NCBI GenBank assembly: GCA_021772755.1
Contig: JAJFLJ010000235.1
Span: 1 to 53,335 of the forward strand
Direction of reading: 5' to 3'
Source: Candidatus Sumerlaeota bacterium
GTDB taxonomy: Bacteria > Sumerlaeota > Sumerlaeia > SLMS01 > JAHLLQ01
DNA length: 53,335 nt
Shown here: piece by piece, positions 4,538 to 44,242 of the stretch
Numbering within the stretch: position 1 is the first letter of the stretch
Layout of the letters: the number at the start of each line of letters is the position of its first letter
Program-made: the position numbers and the translations under genes
The notes under the pieces: generated by a model
Told to the model about the DNA's origin: nothing
Databases searched by the model: none
Seen by the model: only the letters and a program-made list of their open reading frames with translations

Positions 4538-5371
4538 ATGCATTTCATCTACGTCCAGCATTCCGGGAAGCCCGTCGAGAGTTCCGCGGGAAACTTCTGG
4601 GTCCAGGCGGGCGTTTCGCTTCCGGCGGAGAAGTGGAAGGCGCTCCAGCTTCGGCTGAACGGGCTCCAGCGCTCCTTCCAGAAGGACAACTACGATCCGC
4701 TGAAATCGCGCGTCGACGCCAACGACCTTCTCCACCCGCGCAACGCGGAGAAGTCCTGGACGCGGGCGTTCTGCAAGGGCTTCGAGAAGATCGTCGCGGC
4801 GCTCGAACCCAGCTTCTTTCTCGTGGTGGTCGACAAGCGCACCACCGACAAGCCGGCCCACGCCAAGTGGCTGCTTCCCCTGACATACAGCTATCTGATG
4901 AAACCGCTCTGCCAGCACCTTCGCGATGCGGACGACATCGGCTGCATCGTGGTTCCGCCCGGCCGCCCGGAGGAACTCGAGGTTCTCGTCCAGCTGCAGA
5001 CCGAAAACCTCTTCGGTTCCGGCGGCCGCAGCAGTCCGCTGGTTTCCTCGCCGATGGTCCAGAACCAGCGCGACGCGTGCGGCCTGCAGGTGGCGGACTT
5101 CATCGCGACGGCGACGCGGCGCTATCACGAGGGCGTGTACCCGAAACTCTACGCCAAGCAGACGCTGGTGGGCTACGACGCGGTAATCAACTCGCACTAC
5201 CAGGGGTTCGTGAAGCCGAACACGTTCCAGTCCTCGGCGATCGACTCGAAGGGATACAAGATCCGGGGATATATCTATCTCTGGCGGCGCGACAACCTCG
5301 GCCGTCTTCGCCTGGAGCAGCCAAGCCGCGACGAAGTTCCGATCGGAGACGTCGCCTCCGCCGGCGCCTAG
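4538..5371 (+). CDS. DUF3800-like protein (RNase H-like fold) with degenerate N-terminal motif
   Basis: N-terminal FIYVQHSG...FWVQAGV (family pattern Y-x-D-E-S-G...F-V-x-G-G) and C-terminal GLQVADFIA (Q-x-A-D signature). Confidence 0.7.
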   Translation: MHFIYVQHSGKPVESSAGNFWVQAGVSLPAEKWKALQLRLNGLQRSFQKDNYDPLKSRVDANDLLHPRNAEKSWTRAFCKGFEKIVAALEPSFFLVVVDKRTTDKPAHAKWLLPLTYSYLMKPLCQHLRDADDIGCIVVPPGRPEELEVLVQLQTENLFGSGGRSSPLVSSPMVQNQRDACGLQVADFIATATRRYHEGVYPKLYAKQTLVGYDAVINSHYQGFVKPNTFQSSAIDSKGYKIRGYIYLWRRDNLGRLRLEQPSRDEVPIGDVASAGA

Positions 5372-5380
5372 CGGCGAGAC

Positions 5381-5869
5381 CTACCCCGTTCGCTTCCACC
5401 CATGCGTCCGGAACGGCGCATACCCCATTCGCTTCCAGAACCGTTCGGCGTCCGCATTGACGGCGAGCCACGAGAGTTCGACGTGTCGGATGTCGCGGTC
5501 CGCGAACCAGTCCTCCGCGGCGCGGACCAGTGCGCGCCCCAGGCCGCGACCGCGATGCCGCTCCGCGACCCACAGAAGCGCCACGGTGCCCGTGCGGCCG
5601 GCGAGCGCCTCGGGCATGGCGCCGGACCCGATCGCCAGGCAGGCGCAGCCGATGAACTCGCCGCTCGCGGATTCCAGCACAAGCGCCCCCTGCGTGCCTC
5701 CGCCGGTGAACCGGGCCGCCCACTCGCGGAGGGGTTCGGAATCGCCGTCCGGCAGGCCTTGGACGTAAGGGTCGCTTCCCTGGCGGCGGGCGTGGAGGAC
5801 GGTTTCGACCGCCGCGCGGGCGATTCTCGGGACGTCGTCGATGGTCGCAGGGCGGATCGTCGGTTCCAT
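5381..5869 (-). CDS. GNAT-family N-acetyltransferase
   Basis: IRPATIDD N-terminus; acetyl-CoA motif LWVAERHRGRGLGRAL; C-terminal NADAERFWKRMGY. Confidence 0.88.
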   Translation of the reverse strand: MEPTIRPATIDDVPRIARAAVETVLHARRQGSDPYVQGLPDGDSEPLREWAARFTGGGTQGALVLESASGEFIGCACLAIGSGAMPEALAGRTGTVALLWVAERHRGRGLGRALVRAAEDWFADRDIRHVELSWLAVNADAERFWKRMGYAPFRTHGWKRTG

Positions 5870-5980
5870 GGCGAGACCCTTTTTCCTCCCGCAGCGGGGG
5901 TTCCACGCAATTTTTCTGTTTTCCTGGGGCCGAAGATGGGCTAGCCCTTTGATCGAGTCTGACCCCCAGGAGCACTTCCC

Positions 5981-7090
5981 ATGGCAGTTATCCGACTGGA
6001 CGACCTTCTCCAGGAGATGGTCGATCGCAAGTCGTCCGACCTGTTCATCAAGGCCGGCGTGCCCCCCCACGTTCGCGTCGATGGCGTGGTTCGCCCGCTG
6101 GACTACGCCGAAATCACCATGGAGGACGCCCAGGACATCGCCTACGGGATGATGACCGAAGACCAGATCGAGCAGTTCGAGCGCATTCCCGAGATGGATC
6201 TGGCTCTGGGCGTCAGCGGCGTGGGCCGGTTCCGCGTGAACCTCTTTCGCCAGCGCGGCACCGTCGCCATGGTGTTTCGCCACATCACGCGGCCGAACTT
6301 CAGCTTCGAGGACCTCCATCTGCCGCCGGCGGTGAAGACGCTCTCGGAGTCGCCCCGCGGTCTAGTGCTCGTCACCGGCACCACGGGCTCCGGCAAGTCC
6401 ACCTCGCTGGCCGCGATGATCAACCACATCAACGAGCACCGCCGCTGCCACATCGTCACCGTCGAGGACCCCATCGAGTTCCTCCACAACGACAAGCAGG
6501 CCATCGTCAGCCAGCGCGAAGTGGGATTCGACACCAAGACGTTCGAGGACGCGCTTCGCCACGTGCTGCGCCAGGCGCCGGACGTGATTCTGATCGGCGA
6601 AATGCGCGACCTGGAAACGGTCAAGACCTGCGTCGCCGCCGCGGAGACCGGCCACCTGGTTCTCTCCACGCTGCACACCATCAACGCCACGCAGACCGTG
6701 GAGCGCATCATCAACTTCTTCCCCGCCTACCTTCACGACCAGATTCGCATGGAACTCGCGCTCGGCCTGCAGGGCATCGTCAGCCAGCGCCTGCTTCCCC
6801 TCAAGCGCGGCCAGGGCCGCATTCCCGCGGTCGAGATTCTGATCAACACGCCGCTGCTGCGCAAACTCATCCACGAGGGGCGCACCATCGAACTGCTGCC
6901 CGCCGTCGAGGAGGGCAAGCACTGGGGCATGCAGAGCTTCAACCAGTCTCTGTTCGACCTTATCAAGACCGGCTTCATCAACTACGACGACGCGCTCACC
7001 TACGCCACAAGCCCCGAGGAACTCCGCCTCATGGTCGAGGGCATCACCTCCGGCACCAAGAAGAGCAACGAGGGCTACCTGGAGTACTGA
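5981..7090 (+). CDS. pilT: Type IV pilus retraction ATPase, PilT/PilU family
   Basis: Walker A GTTGSGKST; Asp box TVEDPIEF; Walker B LRQAPDVILIGEMRD; His box AETGHLVLSTLH; GMQSF. AGGAG RBS upstream. Confidence 0.92.
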   Translation: MAVIRLDDLLQEMVDRKSSDLFIKAGVPPHVRVDGVVRPLDYAEITMEDAQDIAYGMMTEDQIEQFERIPEMDLALGVSGVGRFRVNLFRQRGTVAMVFRHITRPNFSFEDLHLPPAVKTLSESPRGLVLVTGTTGSGKSTSLAAMINHINEHRRCHIVTVEDPIEFLHNDKQAIVSQREVGFDTKTFEDALRHVLRQAPDVILIGEMRDLETVKTCVAAAETGHLVLSTLHTINATQTVERIINFFPAYLHDQIRMELALGLQGIVSQRLLPLKRGQGRIPAVEILINTPLLRKLIHEGRTIELLPAVEEGKHWGMQSFNQSLFDLIKTGFINYDDALTYATSPEELRLMVEGITSGTKKSNEGYLEY

Positions 7091-30501: not shown

Positions 30502-33147
30502 ATGGACGGACGAACGGGTAGCGCCGCGCAGGCGGCCGGGCTCTTCGCGCTGGAATCGCGGCGGATGCTGCGGGGATGGCGGTGGCGCACGCTCGTTCTC
30601 CTGAACGCGGCCGTCGCGGCGGTTCTGTCGCGCACGGGGGACTGGGGCGAAGGGGCGGCGGTCTTTCTGCCGGGTGGAGAGACGGGTGTTCGCGCGTTCG
30701 GACTGATGTACGCGATCGCGTCGATGGTTCTGGCGACCGATCTGGCGGGGCAGGCGGACCGGCATCACGCGCGGTCGCTGTACGACGCGCGGCCCGTGTC
30801 GGGATTCGCGCTGCAATGCTCGAGATTCCTGGCGATGTTCGCGACGATCGCACCGCTGGCGGTCGCGACGAGCCTGCTGCCGCCGGCGATCGTGCGGGCG
30901 CGCGGCGGGGATGCGCTCCTCGCGCCCAACGCGCTGTACCTCTGCGGGCACGTCTTGCCGCTCGTGGCGCTTTGCGTGGCCGCGGGTCTCGCGGCGCGGT
31001 CGTGGATTCGCAACGACACGTCCGCCCTTTCCGCCGCGTCGGTGGCGCTGGCGGCTCCGGTGTGGGTCGCGCTCTTCGATTCGCAGCCGCAGGAGCTGTT
31101 TCTCTCCTCGTCGCGGATTCTCGGCGTGCTGGTGCCCGCAAGCGAAACGGCGCGGACGGCGTCGCTGTCGTGCCTCGCCGTCCTGCCGTTTCTCGGTCTC
31201 GCGATGCTGAAGCCGCGTGCGCTTCGGAGCCGCACCCCCCTGCGCAGTCTCTCGCCGCCCAGGAAGTCGCGCTTCGGAACGGTTCGAGGCGCGTTCTCCG
31301 CGATACCCGGAGCGCGGGAGACCGGCGCGTTCACGCTGTTGCTGGCTCTTGCTGCGGTTTGCGCAGGAGGCCCCGCGCTGCTTGGATCGTTCCGGCGGGC
31401 GGGCGTGGCTCTGACATCGCCGGTGCCGACGGAGATGTCGGCGGACTGGTCGCGCATGCAGCAGCCCGCCGAGGCGGTGTCCGGTGTCGTGGACGCGCCG
31501 CGGATCGTGGCGCGCAAGGCGGAACTGGACACCGACGGCGAGGACAGGATCGCCGTGACGCTGACCCTGGGCTCCTCGCTCGACGCTCCGCAGCCCGTCG
31601 CCGGAGTGACGTTCGGCCCGGCGTGCCGCGTTGCGTCGGTCTCGCGCGGCGATGGCCGCGTGGAGATTCTCCCCGCCGCCGCGTCGCCGCATCTTCACGC
31701 CACGGTACTGCGATTCGACCCGCCGCTTCCGCCGAACGGAGAGTGCGACCTCCGCTTCGAACTGGAACCGGCCCCGAGATCGACGCGCGCGTGGGCGCGG
31801 CTGCGGCATCCGGCCTACGCGACGTTCCAGGACCTGCCGCTCTGGTACGGCGAGGGCGTGCGGATTCGCTACGCCTTCAGCGAGTTCGCCGTCACGCACC
31901 AGCCGGCGCCGTTCGAACTGTCGCTTCCGCTGCTGGCCGGGAGAGAGTGGATCGCCGGTGCGGCGGAGTCGCGTATCGCGGGCGAGACCGTCAGCCTCGT
32001 CGCGGACCGGGCGGCGGTCCCTTCGAGCGTCTTCGCCGCGAACGTCCGGACCGTCGCATCGCCGGAGGAGCAGGCGGTGCCGGTGCACTACGTCGTGTTT
32101 CCCGAGCACGAGGAACTGGCGCGCGCGTTCCACACGATCTTCGCGGACAGGTTCGAGCGTCTCGGACGCGCGTTCGGCGGACGCGACGAGCCGGTCGTCT
32201 TCGTGGAGGTGCCGGGCCAGCGCCCCGGCGATCCGTTCGCGATCGCGTCGCCGGTTCTCGACGAGCTGGCGACGCTGCTGCCGGACTACGACGACCCGCG
32301 CGAACCGACCGCCGACGAGTTCGAACGCCCCTTCGCGGAACTCCACCACGCGGCGGTGTCCACGCTGGTCACTCAGTCGCGGGAGACATTCGAGCATCCC
32401 GAGCTGCTGCGCGATTCGCTGGTCCTCTATCTGCACGTCCACGGATTCGCCCGGGGGATGACGCGTCCGTTCCGCCGCGAGCGGCGCGACTACGTGCTGG
32501 TGCCTTGGGACTGGGTGCGGCCGACGGACGCGTACCCGTTCGATCTCTGGCCCCGCGACGAGGCACAGTACACCGGCCCGGTCTTTCCGCAGCTCCGGCC
32601 CGAGGGTCTCCCGCCTGTTCCCCAGGGGCGGCTCGTCGCGTTTCACCACATGCTGCGGCGTCGGCTGGGCGAAGAGGCGTACGTGCGATTTCTGAACGAT
32701 TTGTTCGGAGAGCGGGGCGGGCGGCTGACTCTGGAGGAGGTCCGACTCGCCGCCGAGGCGCAGGCTGGCGCACCGCTGGGGGAATTCTTCGACCAGTGGC
32801 TGCTGGAGGGCGTCGTCCCGAGGTACCGTCTGGTGGAGGCCCAGGTGGTGCTCGCGGAGAATCCGGAGACCCGGGACCTGGAATACACCACCAGCGTGAC
32901 GGTGAGAAACGAGGGCACGGGCCGCGTGCCGGTGGACGTGCGGCTGGAGACCGAAGGCGACCGGGTGGAGAAAACCGTTGAACCCGATCCGGGCGGGGAC
33001 GTGACACTCGTCTTCGTGACGGCGGACCGTCCCGTCTCGGTCGCGGTGGACCCGGAAGGCTGGGTCGTTCAGATGCCGGAGTTCGACCGGCGGGCCGGAC
33101 GTCCGGTGCATCCGCGGCTCTTCCTCAAGACGGTCCGCGAATTGTAG
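30502..33147 (+). CDS. ABC-2 permease-like membrane domain fused to an M1 aminopeptidase-like domain lacking HEXXH
   Basis: N-terminal multi-TM region (LYDARPVS resembles ABC-2 loops). C-terminal HMLRRRLGEEAYVRFL...LGEFFDQWL..VPRY and VAVDPEGW are typical of M1 peptidase helical and C-terminal domains. Confidence 0.68.
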   Translation: MDGRTGSAAQAAGLFALESRRMLRGWRWRTLVLLNAAVAAVLSRTGDWGEGAAVFLPGGETGVRAFGLMYAIASMVLATDLAGQADRHHARSLYDARPVSGFALQCSRFLAMFATIAPLAVATSLLPPAIVRARGGDALLAPNALYLCGHVLPLVALCVAAGLAARSWIRNDTSALSAASVALAAPVWVALFDSQPQELFLSSSRILGVLVPASETARTASLSCLAVLPFLGLAMLKPRALRSRTPLRSLSPPRKSRFGTVRGAFSAIPGARETGAFTLLLALAAVCAGGPALLGSFRRAGVALTSPVPTEMSADWSRMQQPAEAVSGVVDAPRIVARKAELDTDGEDRIAVTLTLGSSLDAPQPVAGVTFGPACRVASVSRGDGRVEILPAAASPHLHATVLRFDPPLPPNGECDLRFELEPAPRSTRAWARLRHPAYATFQDLPLWYGEGVRIRYAFSEFAVTHQPAPFELSLPLLAGREWIAGAAESRIAGETVSLVADRAAVPSSVFAANVRTVASPEEQAVPVHYVVFPEHEELARAFHTIFADRFERLGRAFGGRDEPVVFVEVPGQRPGDPFAIASPVLDELATLLPDYDDPREPTADEFERPFAELHHAAVSTLVTQSRETFEHPELLRDSLVLYLHVHGFARGMTRPFRRERRDYVLVPWDWVRPTDAYPFDLWPRDEAQYTGPVFPQLRPEGLPPVPQGRLVAFHHMLRRRLGEEAYVRFLNDLFGERGGRLTLEEVRLAAEAQAGAPLGEFFDQWLLEGVVPRYRLVEAQVVLAENPETRDLEYTTSVTVRNEGTGRVPVDVRLETEGDRVEKTVEPDPGGDVTLVFVTADRPVSVAVDPEGWVVQMPEFDRRAGRPVHPRLFLKTVREL

Positions 33148-33206
33148 GGAACAATCCCGTGGCGAAGGCTGTCTTTCGAACGGTAGCGCCACACCCCGAT
33201 CGGCCC

Positions 33207-33887
33207 ATGACCATGACACGCAAACCCGGAACGATCCTGATCCTCGCCATCCTGCTTCTGTCGGCGGCGCTTCTGCCGGCCCAGAACAGCGAGGAGGCGA
33301 TCGCGTTTCTCGGGCGCCTCGAAGAGAAGAACCGGGGGCTGAACTCCCTGTACGGCAGTTTTCACCAGGTCCGCTCCAACAAGATGTTCCTGGAGGAGAT
33401 CGAGTCCAACGGCGAATTCTGGTACGTGAAGCCCGACCAGTTCCGCTGCGACTACCACGAACCGTCGGAGGCGCGTTTCTACCTTCTGGGCGATACGGGG
33501 ATGTACTACACGCCGGAGCTCAAGCAGGTGGAGAAGTTCCGCCTCCAGACCGGCGACTCCGCACCCATCAACCAGATGCTCGTCGGGTTCGGCCTGAGCG
33601 TCGAGAGCATCCTGGATGTCTTCACGGTCCACGTTCCCGCCGAGCAGCCCGAGGACGCCAGGCTCTTCACGGTCGATTTCGTCTCCAGGGACGTGAGCCG
33701 GACGATGGACTATACCCGCATCCGGATCACCTTCGACCGCGAGGAGCTCGAACCGCGGCTCCTGGAGATGGAGGAGCAGGAGGACTCCGTGACGGTGCGG
33801 CTGAAGAAGATCCAGCCCAACGCGGAGATTCCCGAGGACAAGTTCAAGACGGACTTCCCCGCCGACGTGGAAATCGTCGAGTACTGA
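33207..33887 (+). CDS. lolA: Outer-membrane lipoprotein carrier, LolA family
   Basis: Signal peptide; SLYGSFHQ; GEFWYVKPDQFRCDY; YYTPELKQV; NAEIPEDKF. Confidence 0.8.
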   Translation: MTMTRKPGTILILAILLLSAALLPAQNSEEAIAFLGRLEEKNRGLNSLYGSFHQVRSNKMFLEEIESNGEFWYVKPDQFRCDYHEPSEARFYLLGDTGMYYTPELKQVEKFRLQTGDSAPINQMLVGFGLSVESILDVFTVHVPAEQPEDARLFTVDFVSRDVSRTMDYTRIRITFDREELEPRLLEMEEQEDSVTVRLKKIQPNAEIPEDKFKTDFPADVEIVEY

Positions 33888-33907
33888 ATCCGGCCACGGT
33901 CGCCGTT

Positions 33908-33948
33908 CCGCCCGGAAGGGCTTTCCGGGGCGGCCCGCCCGATTTTTT
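33908..33948 (+). terminator. Possible weak terminator after lolA
   Basis: Hairpin CCGCCCGGAA / TTCCGGGGCGG (one bulge), with TTTTTT about 9 nt downstream. Confidence 0.35.
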
Positions 33949-33985
33949 GGTGGCGGTCGGCGGCGGGTACGGCCATATCGGCTCC

Positions 33986-34564
33986 ATGAGACTTCATCTG
34001 CGTTGTCTGACGATGCTGACCCTCGCCGTTCTGGCGCTGGGCGGGTGCGCGCGCGTGTCGCGGGAGCGGACGCTGCCGCCCTCCATCCGCCGGGTGGAGG
34101 TGCCCATGTTCGTCAACCGGTCGGCGGAACCGGGCATCGAGGAGGACGCCACGATCTATGCACAGGAGGAGTTCCTGGCGGACGGACGGCTCGACCTGGT
34201 GAGGGAGAGCGAGGCGGACGCCATCGTGAACGTGGAGCTGACCGGGTTCGACGACACGGCCCAGGGGTTCGACTCCGACGACTTTCCCCGCCAGACGCGC
34301 TATACCGTGACGGCGGACATCCGAATCTACCAGAACAGTCCCGGCCGGCCCCAGTTCGGCCCCAAGCGGACCGTGACCGCGTCGCGCAGCTTCAACAACG
34401 ACACGAGACGGATCACGTACGAGACGAAGGGTGCGGGACGGGAACTGGTTCTGCGCGAACTGGCGCGGCGCATCGTGCTGGAGGTGCTGACCGGCGGCAC
34501 CGGCACGACCTACGACCCCGTTCCCGACGCGAGCCCCGTCGACGAAACCGACCTGTCGTTCTGA
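33986..34564 (+). CDS. lptE: LPS-assembly lipoprotein, LptE family
   Basis: Lipobox LGG-C; LPPSIRRVEVPMFVNRSAEPGIE; EADAIV; C-terminal helix ELARRIV. Confidence 0.78.
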   Translation: MRLHLRCLTMLTLAVLALGGCARVSRERTLPPSIRRVEVPMFVNRSAEPGIEEDATIYAQEEFLADGRLDLVRESEADAIVNVELTGFDDTAQGFDSDDFPRQTRYTVTADIRIYQNSPGRPQFGPKRTVTASRSFNNDTRRITYETKGAGRELVLRELARRIVLEVLTGGTGTTYDPVPDASPVDETDLSF

Positions 34565-34571
34565 GGCGGCG

Positions 34572-36602
34572 ATGACCGCCCCCGAACCCCTCATCCCCCC
34601 CCGGCCCGTACCGCCCGCGTTTCCGCTGAGGCGGTTCCTGCGGCGAAACCTGCTGCTGACGCTCTCGACGGCGATCTTCGCCGCCGTTACCGTGCTGGTG
34701 CTCGTCCAGGTCGATCGGGTGTACTACGGACAGGCGAAGGCCGCGATCCTTCAGGAGGACCGCGAGTTCAACGAGTACATCAGCGGAGAGGTGCTCGAGA
34801 ACATCGTCACCAAGTCCCTCGCGATTCCCTCCCGCGAGGACGGCGGCACACCGGTCGCCGCCGATCCGCGGAAACTCGCCGAACTGGATGCCGACATCGC
34901 GGCGTACATGGATTCGCTGCCGATGGTCCTGAGCCTGCGGCTTTACGGCGGCGCGAACGACGTGCTGGTCGAGACGGAACGCCCGGGGCGGATGAGGACG
35001 CAGAACGACTTCACGAACTGCCTGCTGATTCGCAGCTGGGAGAAGCGCCTCACGAAGCAGAAGAACAAGGAGGTCTCCGGCAGCCGACGGAGCGCCGTCA
35101 TCGTGTACACCACGCCCCGGGGACATGCAGGCGTGGAGCGGCTGACCCGCCAGTGGCGCTGGATCGCGGCGGGCATCGCGGTCGCGATTCTCGCGGTCTA
35201 CGGTCTCCTGGTCTGGGGCGTGATCCTGCCGACGCGAAGCGTGATGTCCGCGCTGGACAAGGGCGCGCGCGTGGGCTCGCCCTTTCTGGAGAGGCCGCGG
35301 AGCCTGCTGGAGAAGTACTACAACAACCTCGCGCGCGACGCGACGCTTTCGATCTTCTCGACGCATCTGCGGTCGTACGCCGCACGCGAATCGGGCCTGG
35401 AGGTCGAGCCGATCGTGGATGTGGCGCCGCGCCTGGTTTCCGAGCTGTTCCCCATCGCCGCGTGCGGAGCGCTCCTCTTCCGCCGCAGGGAAAAGGACGG
35501 CCCGTGGACGCTCGACAGGACGCACAGCAGGACCGACGGGCTGCCGGAAGAACTTGCCGCCCGGGTGATCGCCGCTATCGGGCGGGACGACGCCGCAGAG
35601 GTGGACGGCCTCTATTCGCGGGAAATCTGGGAGTCGCCGCTGATGCGGGCGGCCTTCGTGGCCCGGCGTACCGACTGGATGGCGTCGAACGCGGCGTGGT
35701 GGGACGACGTGCTGGAGGGTATCGCGCGGGAGATCGGCTTCGCGCTGCGCATCGCTGCGGAACGCCGCCGCGTCATCTTCCAGGAAAAGAGCAAGGCGAA
35801 CATCTCCCTCTCGCGCAACCTTGGCCACGACCTGACGAACATCATCGCGACGAGCAAACTGGAGCTGATGACGCTCAAGTCGTTGCTGGAGATGAAGAGC
35901 GAGGACATCTACAAGTCGGAGCAGAAGAGAAGACTGTTTCGCGAGAGCCTGGAATCGGTTCTCAGCAGTACGCGCTTCCTGCAGGAAACGGTGAACCTGT
36001 ATCGGTCCTTCACGTACCTTTCGCGGCCGAAGTTCGAGCGCATCCTCCTGAGCGAGCTGGTGGCGGAGGCGGGCGGGCTGTTCAAGCTCTCGATCTCGCG
36101 CAACATCGGGATTCGCATGGAACTCGACGAGTCGCTGCCGCCCATCACCGTGGAACCGCGGCTGCTGAAGCTGGCGATCTTCAATCTGCTGAGCAACGCC
36201 GCCGATGCCATCAAGCTGGGCGCGACCGTGGAGAAGCCCCGGGGGGAGATCGAAATCCGGACGTCGGCGGGGCAGCGGCCCGGGCACCAGGAGGTGACGG
36301 TGCTGGACAGCGGAATGGGCATTCGCGGGCCGGGGGGCGACCTGCTCGGTCCCGGCGAGATCGAACAGGTCTTCCGACTGGGCTATACGACGAAGGAGCA
36401 GGGCACTGGCGAGGGTCTGGGGCTGAACTGGGTGTCGCAGATCGTGCGGGATTTCCACGCCGGCGAGCTGATCGCGGCGAACCGGCCCGAAGGGGGGGCC
36501 TCTTTCGGCATTGTGCTTTCGGCTCACGCGATCGAAGAATTGGCGGAAGCGGCGCGCGAGGCGGATTCCGGCGCCATTCGCAAACCAGGGGGGAACGGCT
36601 GA
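34572..36602 (+). CDS. Membrane sensor histidine kinase
   Basis: Two TM helices flank an extracytoplasmic domain. H-box SRNLGHDLTNII; N-box FNLLSNAADA; G1 LDSGMGI; F-box VFRLGYTTK; G2 GEGLGL. Confidence 0.93.
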   Translation: MTAPEPLIPPRPVPPAFPLRRFLRRNLLLTLSTAIFAAVTVLVLVQVDRVYYGQAKAAILQEDREFNEYISGEVLENIVTKSLAIPSREDGGTPVAADPRKLAELDADIAAYMDSLPMVLSLRLYGGANDVLVETERPGRMRTQNDFTNCLLIRSWEKRLTKQKNKEVSGSRRSAVIVYTTPRGHAGVERLTRQWRWIAAGIAVAILAVYGLLVWGVILPTRSVMSALDKGARVGSPFLERPRSLLEKYYNNLARDATLSIFSTHLRSYAARESGLEVEPIVDVAPRLVSELFPIAACGALLFRRREKDGPWTLDRTHSRTDGLPEELAARVIAAIGRDDAAEVDGLYSREIWESPLMRAAFVARRTDWMASNAAWWDDVLEGIAREIGFALRIAAERRRVIFQEKSKANISLSRNLGHDLTNIIATSKLELMTLKSLLEMKSEDIYKSEQKRRLFRESLESVLSSTRFLQETVNLYRSFTYLSRPKFERILLSELVAEAGGLFKLSISRNIGIRMELDESLPPITVEPRLLKLAIFNLLSNAADAIKLGATVEKPRGEIEIRTSAGQRPGHQEVTVLDSGMGIRGPGGDLLGPGEIEQVFRLGYTTKEQGTGEGLGLNWVSQIVRDFHAGELIAANRPEGGASFGIVLSAHAIEELAEAAREADSGAIRKPGGNG

Positions 36603-36603
36603 C

Positions 36604-37881
36604 ATGTCCGCGAAAGTGATGATCGTCGACGACAACGAGATGTACCGCGCGGCGTTCCGGCGGAACTTGGTGCTGCGCGACTACGAGGTGTGCGAGGCGG
36701 AGAACGGCGAGGAGGCTCTTCGCGTCTTCCAGGAGGAGAAGCCGGAAGTCGTGGTGACGGACCTCAGCATGCGCACGCCCAACGAGGGGCTCGACGTGAT
36801 TCGCTCGGTGCGCAGCATCGAACCGCTGGTCCCCATCGTGATGATCAGCGCCGTCGGCACCTTCGAGGAGGGGGCCGAGGCGAACCGTCTCGGCGCCCAC
36901 AGCGTCATCAGCAAGTCGCGCATCGACGAAGAGATCGAAAGTCTCTACCGGACGATCGAGGCGGCGCGCGAAAGCAGCGCGTACAACCGCGGCCTTCTCG
37001 CCGAGATCGAGGCCCTTCGCCCCCCGGCCGATGCGGACCCGACCCCGCCCGGCGAGCGGGCCGTCGCGCGGCTGCGGCAGATCACCGGCGACGCGAAAGC
37101 CCACCAGACCGTGCGGAGCGAGGCGTTCGACCTGCTCGCCGCGTTCACGGAAAGCGACAATCGCGCGGCCCTGGAGGAGCGCATCCGCGAAACCGGCGCG
37201 CGCGATCTCGAACTGGCCGAGCAGCGCCTGCGCGAGACCATTCCCGCCTTCGACTCGTGCGAGGCGGCCACGCGCAAGGAGCTGCGGACGGCCGAGTATT
37301 TCTACGCGCAACAGGGCGGCGACAAGCCGGAGGGCGCGGCGGACTTCTCCCGCAACATCGGCTTCTCGTACTGCTTCGCCGTGGAAAACGAGGCGAAGAA
37401 CCGCATGCGCAAGCGCATCCACAAGTTCCTTTCGCAGCGCGACACGGTGAAGCTGATCCGCAGGCTCATCGATCCGAAGACCGGCCAGCTCGACCTGTTC
37501 TACCACCAGCATCTCGCCAGGATCCAGCAGCTTCAGCCGTTCGACTTCACGATCGACAACGTGCGCCAGGTGTTCCAGCGCATCCTCGAACACGAGTCGC
37601 GCTACAAGCCCGACGGGCTGAAGGCGCTGGGCATCCTGATTCTCTGCTTCGCGCGCTCGTACGAGGTCAAGACGCTGCGCGGAAACGTGCTGGTGGCGAA
37701 CCCGCTGAACCTCAAGGGGTTCGACACGCAGGACGACATCGTGGCCTTCGCGCAGCTGCTCGTGGCGCTCCAGCACTTCCGCAATCCCTACATCCATCCC
37801 GAGATCAGCGAGATGGAGAAGATCTCGAAGATTCGAGAGACCGCGTTCGACTGCCTCAACCGCATCGCCAAGCTGGGGTAG
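36604..37881 (+). CDS. Response regulator: receiver domain plus C-terminal HEPN-like (R-X4-H) domain
   Basis: REC residues: IVDD, VVTD (phosphoacceptor), MIS, ISK. C-terminus: ELRTAEYFY...DFS...YCFAVENEAK and QHFRNPYIH (37780-37797). No HTH, GGDEF or HD output domain. Confidence 0.85.
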   Translation: MSAKVMIVDDNEMYRAAFRRNLVLRDYEVCEAENGEEALRVFQEEKPEVVVTDLSMRTPNEGLDVIRSVRSIEPLVPIVMISAVGTFEEGAEANRLGAHSVISKSRIDEEIESLYRTIEAARESSAYNRGLLAEIEALRPPADADPTPPGERAVARLRQITGDAKAHQTVRSEAFDLLAAFTESDNRAALEERIRETGARDLELAEQRLRETIPAFDSCEAATRKELRTAEYFYAQQGGDKPEGAADFSRNIGFSYCFAVENEAKNRMRKRIHKFLSQRDTVKLIRRLIDPKTGQLDLFYHQHLARIQQLQPFDFTIDNVRQVFQRILEHESRYKPDGLKALGILILCFARSYEVKTLRGNVLVANPLNLKGFDTQDDIVAFAQLLVALQHFRNPYIHPEISEMEKISKIRETAFDCLNRIAKLG

Positions 37882-37893
37882 GGGAAAGGGCGC

Positions 37894-37930
37894 TGGTAGT
37901 TGGTGGTTGATAGTTGGTAGTGGGTAGTTG
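37894..37930. repeat. Five imperfect tandem heptamers (consensus TGGTAGT)
   Basis: TGGTAGT TGGTGGT TGATAGT TGGTAGT GGGTAGT TG, in the convergent gap between the response regulator and mnmG. Confidence 0.8.
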
Positions 37931-38009
37931 TTCGCTGATCGCCGTTTCGGTCACGGAGCTGTGGACCGCTGGATACCTGACAGCCTCTCCGACGAAGAAG
38001 CAATGATGC

Positions 38010-39914
38010 TCAACTTCCAACTTTCAGCGAAACGCGGTCTTTCCATCTTCTCAGAGCGACGAGCAGTACGTCGACGTCGGCGGGGTTGACGCCGGCGAGC
38101 CGCGATGCCTGGCCGACGGTCTCGGGTCGGAACCGTTCGAGGGCGCGCCGGGCTTCGGTACGCAGCGACGCGATCGCGTCGTAGTCCATGTCCACGGGAA
38201 CGCGCTCCTCGTCCATCTGGCGGATGCGCTCCACCTGGCGGGCCTGCTTTTCGAAATACCCGGCATAGGTCACTTCGATCTCCACCTGCTCGCGGTACCG
38301 CTGGTGCCAGTACTCGTCGTCGAAGTGGCGTTCGATGGGGCCAAGGATGCGCTCGTAGGTGTCCAGTCCGATTTCAGGGCGCGACATGATCTGGCCGAGC
38401 ATGGACATCTTCGCGGGACGTTCGATCCCGGCTTCCGCCGCAGCGTTCCAGTCCGCGTCGGAATGGCGAAGCGGCGTGCTGGCGAGACGCTCGGCTTCCG
38501 CGCGGGAGGCCTCGCGCAGGGCGGCGACCTGTTCCAGCTCGCGCTCGTCGATCAAGCCGACGCGGCAGGCATGGGACGCCAGACGCAGATCGGCGTTGTC
38601 GCAGCGAAGAAGAAGGCGGAACTCGGCGCGGCTCGTGAAGAGCCGGTAGGGCTCGCGGTGGTTCTTCGAGAGAAGGTCGTCGATCATGACGGCGAGGTAG
38701 GCTTCGCCGCGCCCCAGAAGGAGAGGCTCCTCGTTCTTGCACGCCAGGGCCGCGTTGATCCCCGCCATCAGTCCCTGTCCGGCGGCTTCCTCGTACCCGC
38801 TGGTGCCGTTGATCTGGCCGGCGAGATAGAGGCCCGGAACGTCGCGCACCTCGAGCGTGTGGCGAAGCTGGTGGGGCGGAACGCAGGTGTACTCGACGGC
38901 ATACCCGTGGCGGACGAACTCGCAATTCTCCAGTCCGGGGACAGTGTGGAGAAAGGCTTCCTGCACGTCGGCGGGAAGGCTCGTGGAAACGCCGTTGGGA
39001 TAGATGGTATCTCCGCCGCGCGATTCCGGTTCCAGGAATATCTGGTGGCTGGTGCGGTCCTCGAAGCGGACGATCTTGTCCTCGATGGAGGGGCAGTATC
39101 GCGGTCCGACGCCCTCGATGCGCCCCGTGTACATGGGCGACTTGTCGAGATTGCCGCGGATGATGTCGTGGGTCCGTTCCGTGGTGCGGGTGAGCCAGCA
39201 GCAGACCTGCTCGACGTCGAGACTGCGCGTGCGAATGCTCATGGGCGGGGCGGGATCGTCGCCGGGCTGAACGTCGCACTTCGAAAAGTCGATCGACGAC
39301 TTCCTCAGACGCGCCGGCGTTCCGGTCTTCAGGCGGCTCGTCTCCAGACCCAGGGCGAGAAACGAGTCCGCGAGGCGCTCGGAGGGCTGTTCGCCGACGC
39401 GACCGCCCTTCGTCTGCACCAGCCCGCAGTGCATGACGCCGTTGAGAAACGTGCCCGTCGTGAGGACGAGCGCGCGGCATTCCAGGCGCACGCCGTCCTC
39501 GGTGGTGATGGCGGAGACGCGGCCGCCGGAGGTGTGGATCTCGCCGCCGGTCCCCGGGATGACGACCAGGTTCTCGACGCGGGCGAGCGCCCCGGCCATC
39601 CACGTCGGATAGAGGTCCTTGTCGAGCTGGACGCGCGGGGCGCGAACGGCGGGACCCTTCGAACGGTTGAGAAGGCGAAACTGAATCCCGGCGGCGTCGG
39701 TGGCGCGGGCCTGCAGTCCGCCCATCGCGTCGATTTCGCGAACGAGGTGCCCCTTGCCGAGGCCGCCCATCGCGGGATTGCACGAGAGACGTCCGACGGC
39801 CTGGGGGTCCATCGTGAGCAGCGCGGTCCGGCAACCGAGTTTCGCCGCCGCATGGGCGGCCTCGATGCCGGCGTGGCCGCCGCCCACGACGACGATGTCG
39901 AATCGGTCGGTCAT
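38010..39914 (-). CDS. mnmG: tRNA uridine-5-carboxymethylaminomethyl modification enzyme MnmG (GidA)
   Basis: VVGGGHAG, SCNPAMGG, LNRSKGPAV, GPRYCPSIEDK, AGQINGTSGYEEAA, and EPYRLFTSRAEFRL. Confidence 0.97.
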   Translation of the reverse strand: MTDRFDIVVVGGGHAGIEAAHAAAKLGCRTALLTMDPQAVGRLSCNPAMGGLGKGHLVREIDAMGGLQARATDAAGIQFRLLNRSKGPAVRAPRVQLDKDLYPTWMAGALARVENLVVIPGTGGEIHTSGGRVSAITTEDGVRLECRALVLTTGTFLNGVMHCGLVQTKGGRVGEQPSERLADSFLALGLETSRLKTGTPARLRKSSIDFSKCDVQPGDDPAPPMSIRTRSLDVEQVCCWLTRTTERTHDIIRGNLDKSPMYTGRIEGVGPRYCPSIEDKIVRFEDRTSHQIFLEPESRGGDTIYPNGVSTSLPADVQEAFLHTVPGLENCEFVRHGYAVEYTCVPPHQLRHTLEVRDVPGLYLAGQINGTSGYEEAAGQGLMAGINAALACKNEEPLLLGRGEAYLAVMIDDLLSKNHREPYRLFTSRAEFRLLLRCDNADLRLASHACRVGLIDERELEQVAALREASRAEAERLASTPLRHSDADWNAAAEAGIERPAKMSMLGQIMSRPEIGLDTYERILGPIERHFDDEYWHQRYREQVEIEVTYAGYFEKQARQVERIRQMDEERVPVDMDYDAIASLRTEARRALERFRPETVGQASRLAGVNPADVDVLLVALRRWKDRVSLKVGS

Positions 39915-42850: not shown

Positions 42851-44242
42851 ATGTTCAGAAAAGTCCTGATCGCAAACCGCGGAGAGATCGCCGTCCGGAT
42901 TATCCGGGCGTGTCGGGAGCTTGGCGTCCGCACGGTCGCGGTCTACAGCGAGGCGGACCGCGACAGCCTGCACGTCCATTCCGCCGACGAGGCGCTCTGC
43001 ATCGGCCCCGCGCCGAGTTCCGAGAGCTACCTCAACGTGGCGCGCATCATCAGCGCCGCGGAAGTCACGGACGCCGACGCGATCCATCCCGGCTACGGCT
43101 TTCTGGCGGAGAACGCGGACTTCGCGGAGACCTGCGCGGAGTGCAACGTCACGTTCATCGGCCCCAGCCCCGACGCCATCCGGCGCATGGGGGACAAGGG
43201 CTCCGCGCGTGCGGCGGCTCTCGCGGCGGGATGCCCGACGGTTCCCGGCAGCGACGGGGTCGTGGAGGACCAGGACGAGGCTCTCGCCATCGCGAAGACC
43301 ATCGGCTTTCCCGTCATGATCAAGGCGACGGCCGGCGGCGGCGGGCGCGGAATGCGCATGGCCCGCGACGTCGAAGCCTTCGCCAACGCGTTCAAGACCG
43401 CGCGGGCCGAGGCGCGCACGGCGTTCGGCAACCCGGACGTCTACATCGAGAAGTGCATCGTCTCGCCCAAGCACGTCGAGGTGCAGATTCTCGGCGACAG
43501 CCACGGCAACATCGTCCACCTGGGCGAGCGCGACTGCTCGATCCAGCGGCGCCACCAGAAGCTGGTGGAGGAGGCGCCGTGCCCCGTCGTCGGCGAGAAG
43601 ATGCGCAAGGCGATGGGCGAGGCGGCGATCGCCGCGGCGCGCGAGGTGGACTACTGCGGCGCGGGGACGATCGAGTTCCTGCTCGACGCGGACGGGAAGA
43701 ACTTCTACTTCATCGAGATGAACACGCGGATCCAGGTCGAGCACCCGATCACGGAACTGGTCACGGACATCGACATCGTGAAGGAGCAGATTTCCGTCGC
43801 GGCCGGCAACCCCCTCTCCTTCGCGCAGTCCGACGTGGCGGTGCGCGGCCATGCCATCGAGTGCCGCATCAACGCCGAGGACCCGGCGCGCAATTTCATG
43901 CCCTGTCCGGGGCGGCTGACGGATTTCGTGGCGCCCGGAGGACCCGGAGTGCGGGTGGACAGCGCCTGCTATCCCGGATACCAGATTCCGCCCTACTACG
44001 ACTCGATGGTCGCGAAGCTGATCGTCTACGACAAGACGCGGGACGCCGCCATCATGCGGATGAAGCGGGCATTGCACGAGTTCGTCGCCGTGGGCATCAA
44101 GACGACGGTGCCGTTTCACCTGGAAGTGATGAATTCCGAGTTGTTCCGGCGGGGCCGGTTTGGTACGGATTTCATCGAGGTCTGGAAACGGGACGATACC
44201 CCCGGTCCGGACGAAGTTCCCCCGACAGGAGGAAAGAAGTGA
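42851..44242 (+). CDS. accC: Biotin carboxylase
   Basis: [48 protein letters not shown], and YYDSMVAK. Confidence 0.97.

Follow-up and report, generated by a model that had tools for sequence, protein, structure and literature searches.

The window analysed here is a stretch of 53,335 nucleotides (nt), contig JAJFLJ010000235.1 (assembly GCA_021772755.1) of a Candidatus Sumerlaeota bacterium, and all coordinates given below refer to it. It contains a two-component system: a membrane sensor histidine kinase gene is followed immediately by the gene for a response regulator, in which the receiver (REC) domain and a helical linker lead into an output domain that we predict to be a ribonuclease (RNase) of the HEPN superfamily. 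Both are preceded on the same strand by a LolA-like and a LptE-like gene. The two genes of the system, together with the features within them, are:

34572..36602, + strand: membrane sensor histidine kinase, 676 residues (open reading frame, HATPase_c and NCBIfam AtoS matches)
34647..35237, + strand: sensor part of the kinase, with transmembrane segment 1 at residues 26-48, a loop of ~150 residues and transmembrane segment 2 at residues 196-222 (hydropathy)
35826..35828, + strand: codon of H419, which is presumed to accept the phosphate, in the H-box GHDLTN (orthologue alignment)
36156..36518, + strand: HATPase_c catalytic domain, residues 529-649 (Pfam, E 4.6e-12)
36587-36595, + strand: purine-rich, Shine-Dalgarno-like AGGGGGGAA in the 3' end of the kinase reading frame, 8 nt upstream of the regulator's ATG
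36604..37881, + strand: response regulator, 425 residues, with REC, helical linker and HEPN-like domain (open reading frame, Pfam, model)
36616..36936, + strand: REC domain, residues 5-111 (Pfam Response_reg, PF00072, E 9.4e-20)
36760-36762, + strand: codon of the phospho-acceptor D53, within the REC domain
36937..37245, + strand: helical linker, residues 112-214 (secondary structure of the model)
37246..37878, + strand: HEPN-like output domain, residues 215-425 (domain model, VIA-align)
37384..37398, + strand: E261-N-E-A-K265, an E-x3-K motif in helix-2 (conserved in 81/81 sequences)
37780..37797, + strand: R393-N-P-Y-I-H398, an R-x4-H motif that closes helix-3, its R followed by a polar N (conserved in 80/80 covering sequences)

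The initial annotation of this DNA had described a complete membrane kinase ending 1 bp before a 425-residue regulator, and the junction is exactly as it had stated: the kinase stop codon TGA (36600-36602) is separated by a single C (36603) from the regulator ATG (36604), with AGGGGGGAA placed such that it may act as a ribosome-binding element of the Shine-Dalgarno type. A TTG at 36511, which would give a regulator of 456 residues, was rejected as the start, as the orthologues begin at the MSAKV position and the extension overlaps the kinase. Kyte-Doolittle windows above 1.6 occur in the kinase at residues 25-52 and 195-224 only, and the ~150-residue loop between these segments is predicted to be extracytoplasmic. 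In its H-box, G418, H419, D420, T422 and N423 do not vary among the 36 aligned orthologues, and the best NCBIfam match of the protein is AtoS (E 1.1e-22, residues 448-654).

The receiver shows the full complement of the acidic pocket, the acceptor aspartate, the Ser/Thr and the lysine: D9, D10, T52, D53, S82 and K104, on which the initial annotation had based its description of an intact receiver, are invariant in a 30-sequence regulator alignment. In the larger conservation set used throughout (the window and 80 species-level loci, 81 sequences in all, one locus ending before the R-x4-H site) D9, D10 and D53 are found in 80/80 covering sequences, and S82 and K104 in 81/81. Since these residues are kept across the sequences, the receiver is, on sequence grounds, a normal phospho-acceptor. 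The linker that follows is modelled as an extended alpha-5 helix (residues 111-138) and three further helices (151-161, 168-196 and 199-212); it is the least conserved part of the protein, with a mean majority fraction of 0.34 vs 0.65 for REC and 0.60 for the HEPN-like domain.

For residues ~183-425 no match is found in Pfam, NCBIfam or PADLOC: NCBIfam reports nothing past REC, and the sole PADLOC match of the regulator is that of its REC part to SduA (E 1.1e-05), neither the output domain nor the kinase giving one. No DNA-binding, GGDEF or HD family is detected at E <= 1 with Pfam or NCBIfam, which agrees with the initial statement that the regulator has no such output. An AlphaFold2 model of the full-length regulator (47-sequence alignment; pLDDT 90.3, pTM 0.70) retrieves receiver-domain matches only with Foldseek (REC TM-target 0.8-0.89), and for this reason the output domain was modelled alone, as residues 199-425 (51 sequences; pLDDT 94.1, pTM 0.90). 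The model comprises helix-1 (221-236), helix-2 (249-277), an insert of helical and beta-hairpin character (279-365), helix-3 (376-397) and helix-4 (403-422), which is the four-helix HEPN fold as predicted, with structural matches at Z of 7-10, an ambiguous range for helical bundles.

These matches come from a fold search with VIA-align, which does not depend on Foldseek, across 48,161 PDB representatives, and the resulting list is headed almost wholly by HEPN domains: RnlA (6y2r, Z 9.7, root-mean-square deviation 3.4, 133 aligned residues), the AF_0298 'hepn domain containing protein' (2hsb, Z 8.7), LsoA (5hy3, Z 8.3), the NRD-HEPN of RnlA (7aex, Z 8.2), Roquin (4txa, Z 8.1), TT1696 (1ufb, Z 7.9), the sacsin HEPN (3o10, Z 7.7), the HEPN homologue ST0689 (1wol, Z 7.5), SO_3166 (5yep, Z 7.0) and a HEPN toxin (7ae2, Z 6.8). 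Titles naming RnlA, LsoA or HEPN stand at ranks 1, 2, 4, 5, 8, 9, 13, 18 and 25; 3mfn, in third place, is a protein without known function, and Csm6, AbiA, YutE, HI0074 and MtlR appear further down. Among the high rows, Roquin, 1ufb, 2jpu, Csm6 and AbiA are what we take to be HEPN proteins as well, and 1wwp, 1ylm and 5yep are described as such in the available text of the papers cited for them. When the best 1000 chains of Foldseek are rescored, RnlA again comes out on top (6y2r_B with Z 10.0, 4i8o_A with Z 9.8), with 129-130 residues aligned on residues 203-357 of RnlA, its HEPN domain. A language-model look-up, to be taken as a lead only, places RnlA-toxin_DBD/HEPN_RnaseLS, DUF4145 and Csm6_HEPN as the nearest clusters (scores 0.89-0.80).

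Such a list could also arise from a generic helical-bundle likeness, in which case the domain would be a new fold variant that uses R, N, H, E and K for other chemistry, e.g. hydrolysis of a nucleotide messenger or phosphotransfer. The Foldseek comparison that had been suggested at the outset as a check for a HEPN match did not provide one, since no PDB chain matches the domain model at E <= 0.001 and the sole HEPN row (2q00_B) stands at rank 21 with a probability of 0.47; all profile comparisons are equally negative. The aligner moreover warns that Z below ~13 may reflect a common helical-bundle arrangement, and the top Z here being 10.0, the score alone is no proof, because such values can be generic for helical domains. 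The weight of the fold evidence would lie instead in one superfamily topping a ranking of 48,161 chains, with RnlA, LsoA or HEPN titles at nine of the first 25 ranks and further HEPN proteins among the other high rows, and in the placement of both HEPN motifs on the topologically right helices, which is unexpected for a chance match. We regard the generic-bundle account as improbable, and the output domain as very probably a true HEPN homologue.

According to the HEPN survey (PMC3710099, of which the available text is meant here and below), the Rx4-6H motif lies where helix-3 ends or where the loop leading to helix-4 begins, R is usually followed by N, D or H, a second, acidic motif in helix-2, typically E-x3-[KR], occurs in many families, and inserts fall between helices 2 and 3. 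The model conforms to this description in each respect: FSYCFAVENEAKNR, which includes E261-x3-K265, lies in helix-2; the insert follows it; and LLVALQHF-RNPYIH ends helix-3, the polar N394 standing next to R393 and the last helix coming next. LRTAEYFY lies in helix-1, and DFSRNIGFSYCFAVENEAK is likewise present in the regulator. The initial annotation had singled out the helical linker, these two segments, RNPYIH (37780-37797) and a final helix, and had proposed from them a HEPN layout; all of these elements are present, and the folding of the domain model as HEPN, with both motifs invariant and on the expected helices, speaks for that layout. Judged from the topology of the model, R, N, H, E and K would also cluster in space.

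The conservation of R, N and H, likewise put forward at the outset as a check, is complete: R393, N394 and H398 are retained in 80/80 covering sequences, as are E261 and K265 in 81/81, at regulator identities down to 38%, and the output domain as a whole has 12 invariant alignment columns. A lone R-x4-H would be unremarkable, and it is its constancy at this divergence that, as far as alignments can tell, is beyond chance. The available text of the HEPN survey further reports from mutagenesis that RNase activity requires the His of Rx4-6H in RNase L, PrrC and RloC, and the Arg in the RNase L KEN domain and in PrrC (PMC3710099).

A HEPN fold need not cleave RNA, and the domain might instead bind RNA, a nucleotide or a partner protein, making the regulator a phosphorylation-controlled adaptor or sequestering factor. 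Non-nucleases with a HEPN fold exist, and these, found at the C-terminus of nucleotidyltransferases and in part of the MtlR family, no longer have the motif (PMC3710099); in our searches MtlR/YggD structures are among the weaker VIA-align matches (Z 4.8-5.3), the RNA-binding protein Roquin reaches Z 8.1, and Foldseek ranks the receiver-adaptor RssB first for the full-length model, by way of REC and linker. However, the non-catalytic HEPN families are those without Rx4-6H (PMC3710099), whereas R, N, H, E and K are invariant in the present family and R-N-x3-H is retained even in three distant relatives without REC that were recovered in the exhaustive search of representatives (P0144, P0156 and P0157), with E-x3-R at the matching helix in P0144 (E-N-E-V-R) and P0157 (E-L-T-F-R). 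This is the pattern of a catalytic site, and we consider a purely binding role unlikely.

The three relatives differ in their architecture: P0144 is a stand-alone protein of 247 residues, P0156 (418 residues) has a HEAT_2 match (E 3.9e-05), and P0157 (834 residues) has a long helical N-terminal region of HEAT type. Because of these HEAT-type relatives and of a weak Pfam match to HEAT_2 in the regulator linker (residues 151-201, E 0.3), an origin of the output domain from a HEAT-HEPN ancestor is conceivable.

At the sequence level the output domain matches no profile of a described HEPN family. Pfam reports nothing for it at E <= 10 in 10 family members; a PDB sequence-profile search finds REC only with profile A2 and, with profile A3, a best E of 0.26 to armadillo designs, on the linker. 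In hhalign, profile A4 aligns to Escherichia coli RnlA with a probability of 0.1%, and the 81-sequence domain alignment gives the same value against the HEPN domains of seven RnlA/LsoA sequences (E. coli K-12 and six plasmids). A local likeness at the motif, between ERH-x-LFH-M/A-E of the RnlA family and F-RNPYIH-P-E here, is suggestive only. The TBP-like domains and the RnlB/LsoB antitoxin that go with the RnlA/LsoA toxins are likewise lacking. Because the hhalign comparisons with RnlA/LsoA are negative while RNase LS tops the structural matches, the output domain is treated here as a new family inside the HEPN superfamily, with RNase LS as its nearest structural neighbour. A characterised pathway of a histidine kinase and a REC-HEPN regulator was not known to the initial annotation either, and neither such a pathway nor any receiver-HEPN regulator was found in the full-text literature (subscription journals not covered); the text of the HEPN survey, its figures and Additional file 1 aside, has no receiver-HEPN fusion and names receivers solely as an alternative partner for a transmembrane domain (PMC3710099). 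The novelty would thus consist of two known modules, REC and HEPN, newly combined, with a new HEPN family, and it is unusual in being encoded by a phylum-wide core gene.

The family is narrow, because an exhaustive search of 1.84 billion representatives yields only 38 at E <= 0.001. A word-indexed homologue search returned 406 proteins at the same threshold, and all the named ones among these are Sumerlaeota/BRC1 'response regulators' or bear generic CheY-like labels; family members carry public labels that are either unspecific or erroneous ('DNA-binding NarL/FixJ family', 'sigma-54 dependent'). The best 120 of 351 matches in a homologue search with profile A3 are the same Sumerlaeota regulators, with no distant architectures among them. 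Within the GTDB phylum of the window 66 of the 75 genomes have the output domain, always as one gene (in G062 as two pieces on two contigs), as do 42 of the 43 high-quality genomes (>= 90% complete, <= 5% contaminated), with one match each. A scan of species representatives recovered relatives in 102 genomes, 80 of which were kept as loci; as a few of the genomes bearing relatives are labelled Omnitrophota or 'bacterium' by their submitters, the family probably reaches somewhat beyond Sumerlaeota; at least 14 of the loci lie outside the GTDB phylum of the window.

Co-occurrence with the kinase, which the initial annotation had proposed to examine across homologues, is extensive. The sensor part of the kinase (residues 1-410) is detected in 67 of the 75 phylum genomes and 40 of the 43 high-quality ones, and in a joint tally made by hand over the 75 genomes 62 have both it and the regulator domain, four have neither (G018, G068, G069, G073) and nine have one only, i.e. 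the regulator in G021, G027, G058 and G060 and the kinase in G001, G004, G022, G061 and G071. G069, a single contig of 6.0 Mb that is 96% complete, and its congener G068 are without both genes, which looks like a joint loss, the related genomes not being independent. Of the 69 loci whose upstream sequence spans at least 2.2 kb, 36 have the kinase directly upstream of the regulator and on its strand, and this adjacency follows the divergence of the regulator, being found in 18/20 loci at regulator identities of at least 55% vs 4/23 below 45%. Genomes in which the two genes are not linked nevertheless have the kinase, e.g. 326 kb away in the one-contig genome G066. The 1-nt gap in the window, the invariance of H419 (36/36), the adjacency and the phylum-wide co-occurrence together identify the kinase as the cognate partner of the regulator, to which it would transfer its phosphate. 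The order LptE-like gene, kinase, regulator is seen in 29 of the 66 loci that extend 3.0 kb or more upstream, and the longer order that begins with the LolA-like gene in 24 of the 64 that extend 3.9 kb or more.

The neighbourhoods of the regulators without an adjacent kinase are of a different kind. RNase J is encoded directly downstream of kinase-less regulators in nine loci (L029, L030, L032, L034, L040, L043, L044, L047 and L060), on the same strand and with its start within ~200 nt of where the regulator match ends (e.g. L030:8353-10086, + strand); this is a hint of an RNA-metabolism context, the nine loci probably being one clade and not independent. A proposal that Rho is a neighbour common to nine loci was rejected, as tblastn finds Rho in L041 only. 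Arginyl-tRNA synthetase is encoded upstream of the unlinked regulator in eight loci, and other neighbours include GFO/IDH/MocA oxidoreductases upstream and a glycosyltransferase downstream. Single loci show further genes: L073 (labelled Omnitrophota by its submitter) has a second regulator with REC and an HD_5 phosphohydrolase domain, divergently oriented next to the REC-HEPN gene (5747-6868, - strand); in L035 a Uma2-family putative endonuclease (6198-6944, + strand) and in L033 an AAA_22/STAND-like ATPase with a peptidoglycan-binding domain (4848-6677, - strand) lie upstream of a kinase-less regulator, neither being conserved across loci.

This distribution bears on the rival idea that the protein is an abortive-infection or toxin RNase, serving defence or dormancy, which the kinase unleashes upon phage or envelope attack; abortive infection and dormancy are among the roles mentioned in the initial annotation. 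The nearest structural neighbours, RnlA and LsoA, are indeed toxin-antitoxin and anti-phage RNases, many HEPN families are toxins (PMC3710099), and the distant relative P0157 has a weak PADLOC match to CARF_HEPN (E 0.015). But the gene is present in one copy in 42/43 high-quality genomes, unlike the patchy genes of defence systems; its sequence is strongly conserved, with its 12 invariant domain columns; PADLOC, apart from the REC match to SduA, detects neither the output domain nor the kinase; an antitoxin-like gene is absent downstream, where the next gene is the convergent mnmG; and the neighbours in other lineages (RNase J, arginyl-tRNA synthetase, oxidoreductases, glycosyltransferase) are of housekeeping type. 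The regulator neighbourhoods resemble no defence island, and the patchiness and matches to defence models that mark anti-phage genes are not found. Abortive infection is disfavoured for a core gene that nearly all genomes have in one copy and that lies among housekeeping genes, and we hold the toxin account to be very unlikely; of the roles first suggested, post-transcriptional control fits better.

The genes surrounding the two-component system in the window are:

33159..33887, + strand: LolA-like gene, 242 residues (Pfam LolA, E 1.8e-14)
33947..34564, + strand: LptE-like lipoprotein gene, 205 residues (Pfam LptE, E 8.5e-08, 33.3 bits at a cut-off of 23)
38010-39893, - strand: mnmG, the next gene downstream, convergent with the regulator
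beyond mnmG, - strand: PpiC-type rotamase gene, ~697 residues, a housekeeping neighbour
42851-44239, + strand: biotin carboxylase gene, a housekeeping neighbour downstream

The LolA-like, LptE-like, kinase and regulator genes are all co-directional and would resemble one operon. As the kinase start lies only 7 nt past the end of the LptE-like gene, these two probably belong to the same operon. At 33928-33940 (+ strand), in the gap that separates the LolA-like gene from the LptE-like gene, lies a GC-rich hairpin with a T-run behind it (GGGCGGCCCGCCC GATTTTTTGG); it could split the genes into two transcripts, the number of such sites in the region not being above shuffled expectation. A consensus scan of 32900-38200 gave no promoter-like sites and four terminator-like sites vs 3.8 expected, i.e. 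no signal, and the data sets listed for 33900-37900 comprise one of DNA (a biofilm metagenome study) and none of RNA. The G+C content of 65-70% in the window gives rise to numerous long spurious reading frames on both strands. Two antisense frames over the kinase and regulator (34413-36635, 740 residues, and 36211-37797, 528 residues, both on the - strand), which have similar counterparts in related loci, are taken as spurious because they are rich in Arg, Pro and Ala, as is typical of the reverse strand of high-GC coding DNA. Further upstream, an 881-residue reading frame (30502-33147, + strand) with several N-terminal hydrophobic stretches and no Pfam family at E <= 0.001 has a GT4 glycosyltransferase gene on one side and the LolA-like gene on the other, an order kept in 4/80 loci (L001, L002, L004 and L005). 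The downstream synteny of mnmG, rotamase and biotin carboxylase is common only to the closest relative, L001.

Taken as a whole, the evidence leads us to propose, with moderate confidence, a two-component pathway whose output is a phosphorylation-gated HEPN RNase that acts on RNA in a core regulatory role and is not a transcription factor, in line with the signal-gated RNase suggested by the initial annotation. The analysis shows the gene structure, the catalytic residues of kinase and REC, the HEPN-fold model, the placement and invariance of the motifs, the status as a core gene and the partial linkage to envelope genes; RNase activity, phosphorylation gating and dimerisation of the regulator are inferred. 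Several points weigh against the proposal. The gated activity is a prediction from sequences and models; the Foldseek, Pfam and hhalign comparisons are negative and the Z scores stay below the aligner's mark; and non-nucleases with a HEPN fold are on record. In 33 of the 69 assessable loci the kinase is not immediately upstream, so that the pairing there amounts to co-occurrence only, and the link to LptE and LolA is synteny among related genomes that are not independent. Finally, many CheY-type receivers carry an aromatic switch residue at the position that corresponds to V101 of the regulator (36904-36906, three residues before K104), and because a near-invariant Val replaces it in this family, the coupling of phosphorylation to output may be atypical.

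Under the gated-RNase proposal, the membrane kinase would sense a cue via its ~150-residue extracytoplasmic loop and autophosphorylate on H419, from where the phosphate would pass to D53 of the regulator. Phosphorylation of D53 would alter the pairing of the regulator through REC and the long alpha-5 linker helix, and the altered pairing would bring or release two HEPN domains into the canonical HEPN dimer, in which R393/N394/H398 and E261/K265 would form a metal-independent endoribonuclease site; HEPN RNases leave 2',3'-cyclic phosphate ends, and their active site is completed in such a dimer. RnlA offers a precedent for the dimer switch: it is active solely as a canonical HEPN dimer, in which the Rx4-6H motifs come to lie side by side, and adopts a different dimer at rest (PMC8266594, available text). 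Co-folding of two copies of residues 199-425 (alignment A4) gave a score of 0.34 vs a mark of 0.42, which speaks neither for nor against a dimer. The target would be a defined set of cellular RNAs, with post-transcriptional control possibly tied to outer-membrane assembly; because the gene is a single-copy core gene that in many lineages would belong to an operon of lptE-like gene, kinase and regulator behind a lolA-like gene, defined cellular targets are most likely, and a suicidal anti-phage response is not. In a more specific and decidedly tentative form of the proposal, which we would put forward as a possibility rather than a probability, the system would be a phylum-wide, single-copy core relay from histidine kinase to receiver by which a HEPN endoribonuclease is turned on, comparable among prokaryotes to Ire1/RNase L signalling. 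It would report on outer-membrane assembly and reshape the transcriptome by cleavage instead of transcription, and would ancestrally have been co-transcribed with the LptE-like gene behind the LolA-like gene.

The outputs of response regulators known so far comprise DNA-binding, cyclic-nucleotide, methylesterase, phosphatase, adaptor and RNA-antiterminator functions, to which a nuclease output, if true, would add direct signal-dependent cleavage of RNA. Several of these regulators have a REC domain with an extended alpha-5 linker like that seen here (RssB, NtrX, NtrC1 and EutV in the Foldseek search with the full-length model, E 1.6e-06 to 1.5e-05), but the adaptor RssB, the ANTAR RNA-binding EutV and the NtrC1-type proteins have no HEPN or nuclease domain, and the likeness is limited to REC and linker. 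What the regulators that do not bind DNA, such as RssB and EutV, would share with the REC-HEPN regulator is an output that acts after transcription initiation. If the proposal holds, this would be a new class of two-component output and the first phosphorelay-controlled HEPN RNase with a housekeeping rather than a toxin role; for HEPN biology it would provide a conserved chromosomal regulator that is neither a toxin, nor a CRISPR accessory, nor mobile, and its aspartyl-phosphate on-switch, being experimentally controllable, would make the dimer-activation model of HEPN RNases directly testable. For Sumerlaeota, of which we know of no cultured representative, it would be one of few phylum-defining regulatory modules, with a possible link to envelope biogenesis, and ~400 database proteins could be renamed that at present bear only the label 'response regulator' or 'CheY-like' or, mistakenly, that of a 'DNA-binding' or 'sigma-54 dependent' protein.

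A parallel to the proposed signalling logic is presented by eukaryotic Ire1, where a sensor acts through phosphorylation and dimerisation on an RNase. Ire1 and RNase L resemble the present system in outline (sensor, phosphorylation, dimerisation, then HEPN RNase), and no homology is claimed beyond the superfamily. The HEPN of RNase LS (RnlA and LsoA; PF19034/PF18869) is the best structural neighbour of the regulator output (Z 10.0/9.8), and in both RnlA and the regulator an R-[polar]-x3-H motif lies ~30-40 residues from the C-terminus (ERHSLFH vs RNPYIH). The activity of RnlA depends on a switch into the canonical HEPN dimer (PMC8266594), and it is a like switch that we propose for the regulator. 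The two have only the fold in common, with no detectable similarity of sequence or profile: RnlA combines N-terminal TBP-like domains with the RnlB antitoxin, whereas the regulator is governed by a receiver and a kinase, and RnlA is a sporadic, mobile toxin, whereas the regulator is a single-copy core gene. In the superfamily at large, the same four-helix core, insert between helices 2 and 3, Rx4-6H and E-x3-[KR] recur (PMC3710099), but no Pfam HEPN family matches the output domain. The KEN domain of Ire1 and RNase L is itself a HEPN domain, with its R, its H and the residue after R required for activity; it shows a circular permutation and is joined to a Ser/Thr kinase within a single polypeptide (PMC3710099), whereas in the Sumerlaeota system the histidine kinase and the aspartyl-phosphate receiver are separate proteins, with the predicted HEPN RNase joined to the latter.

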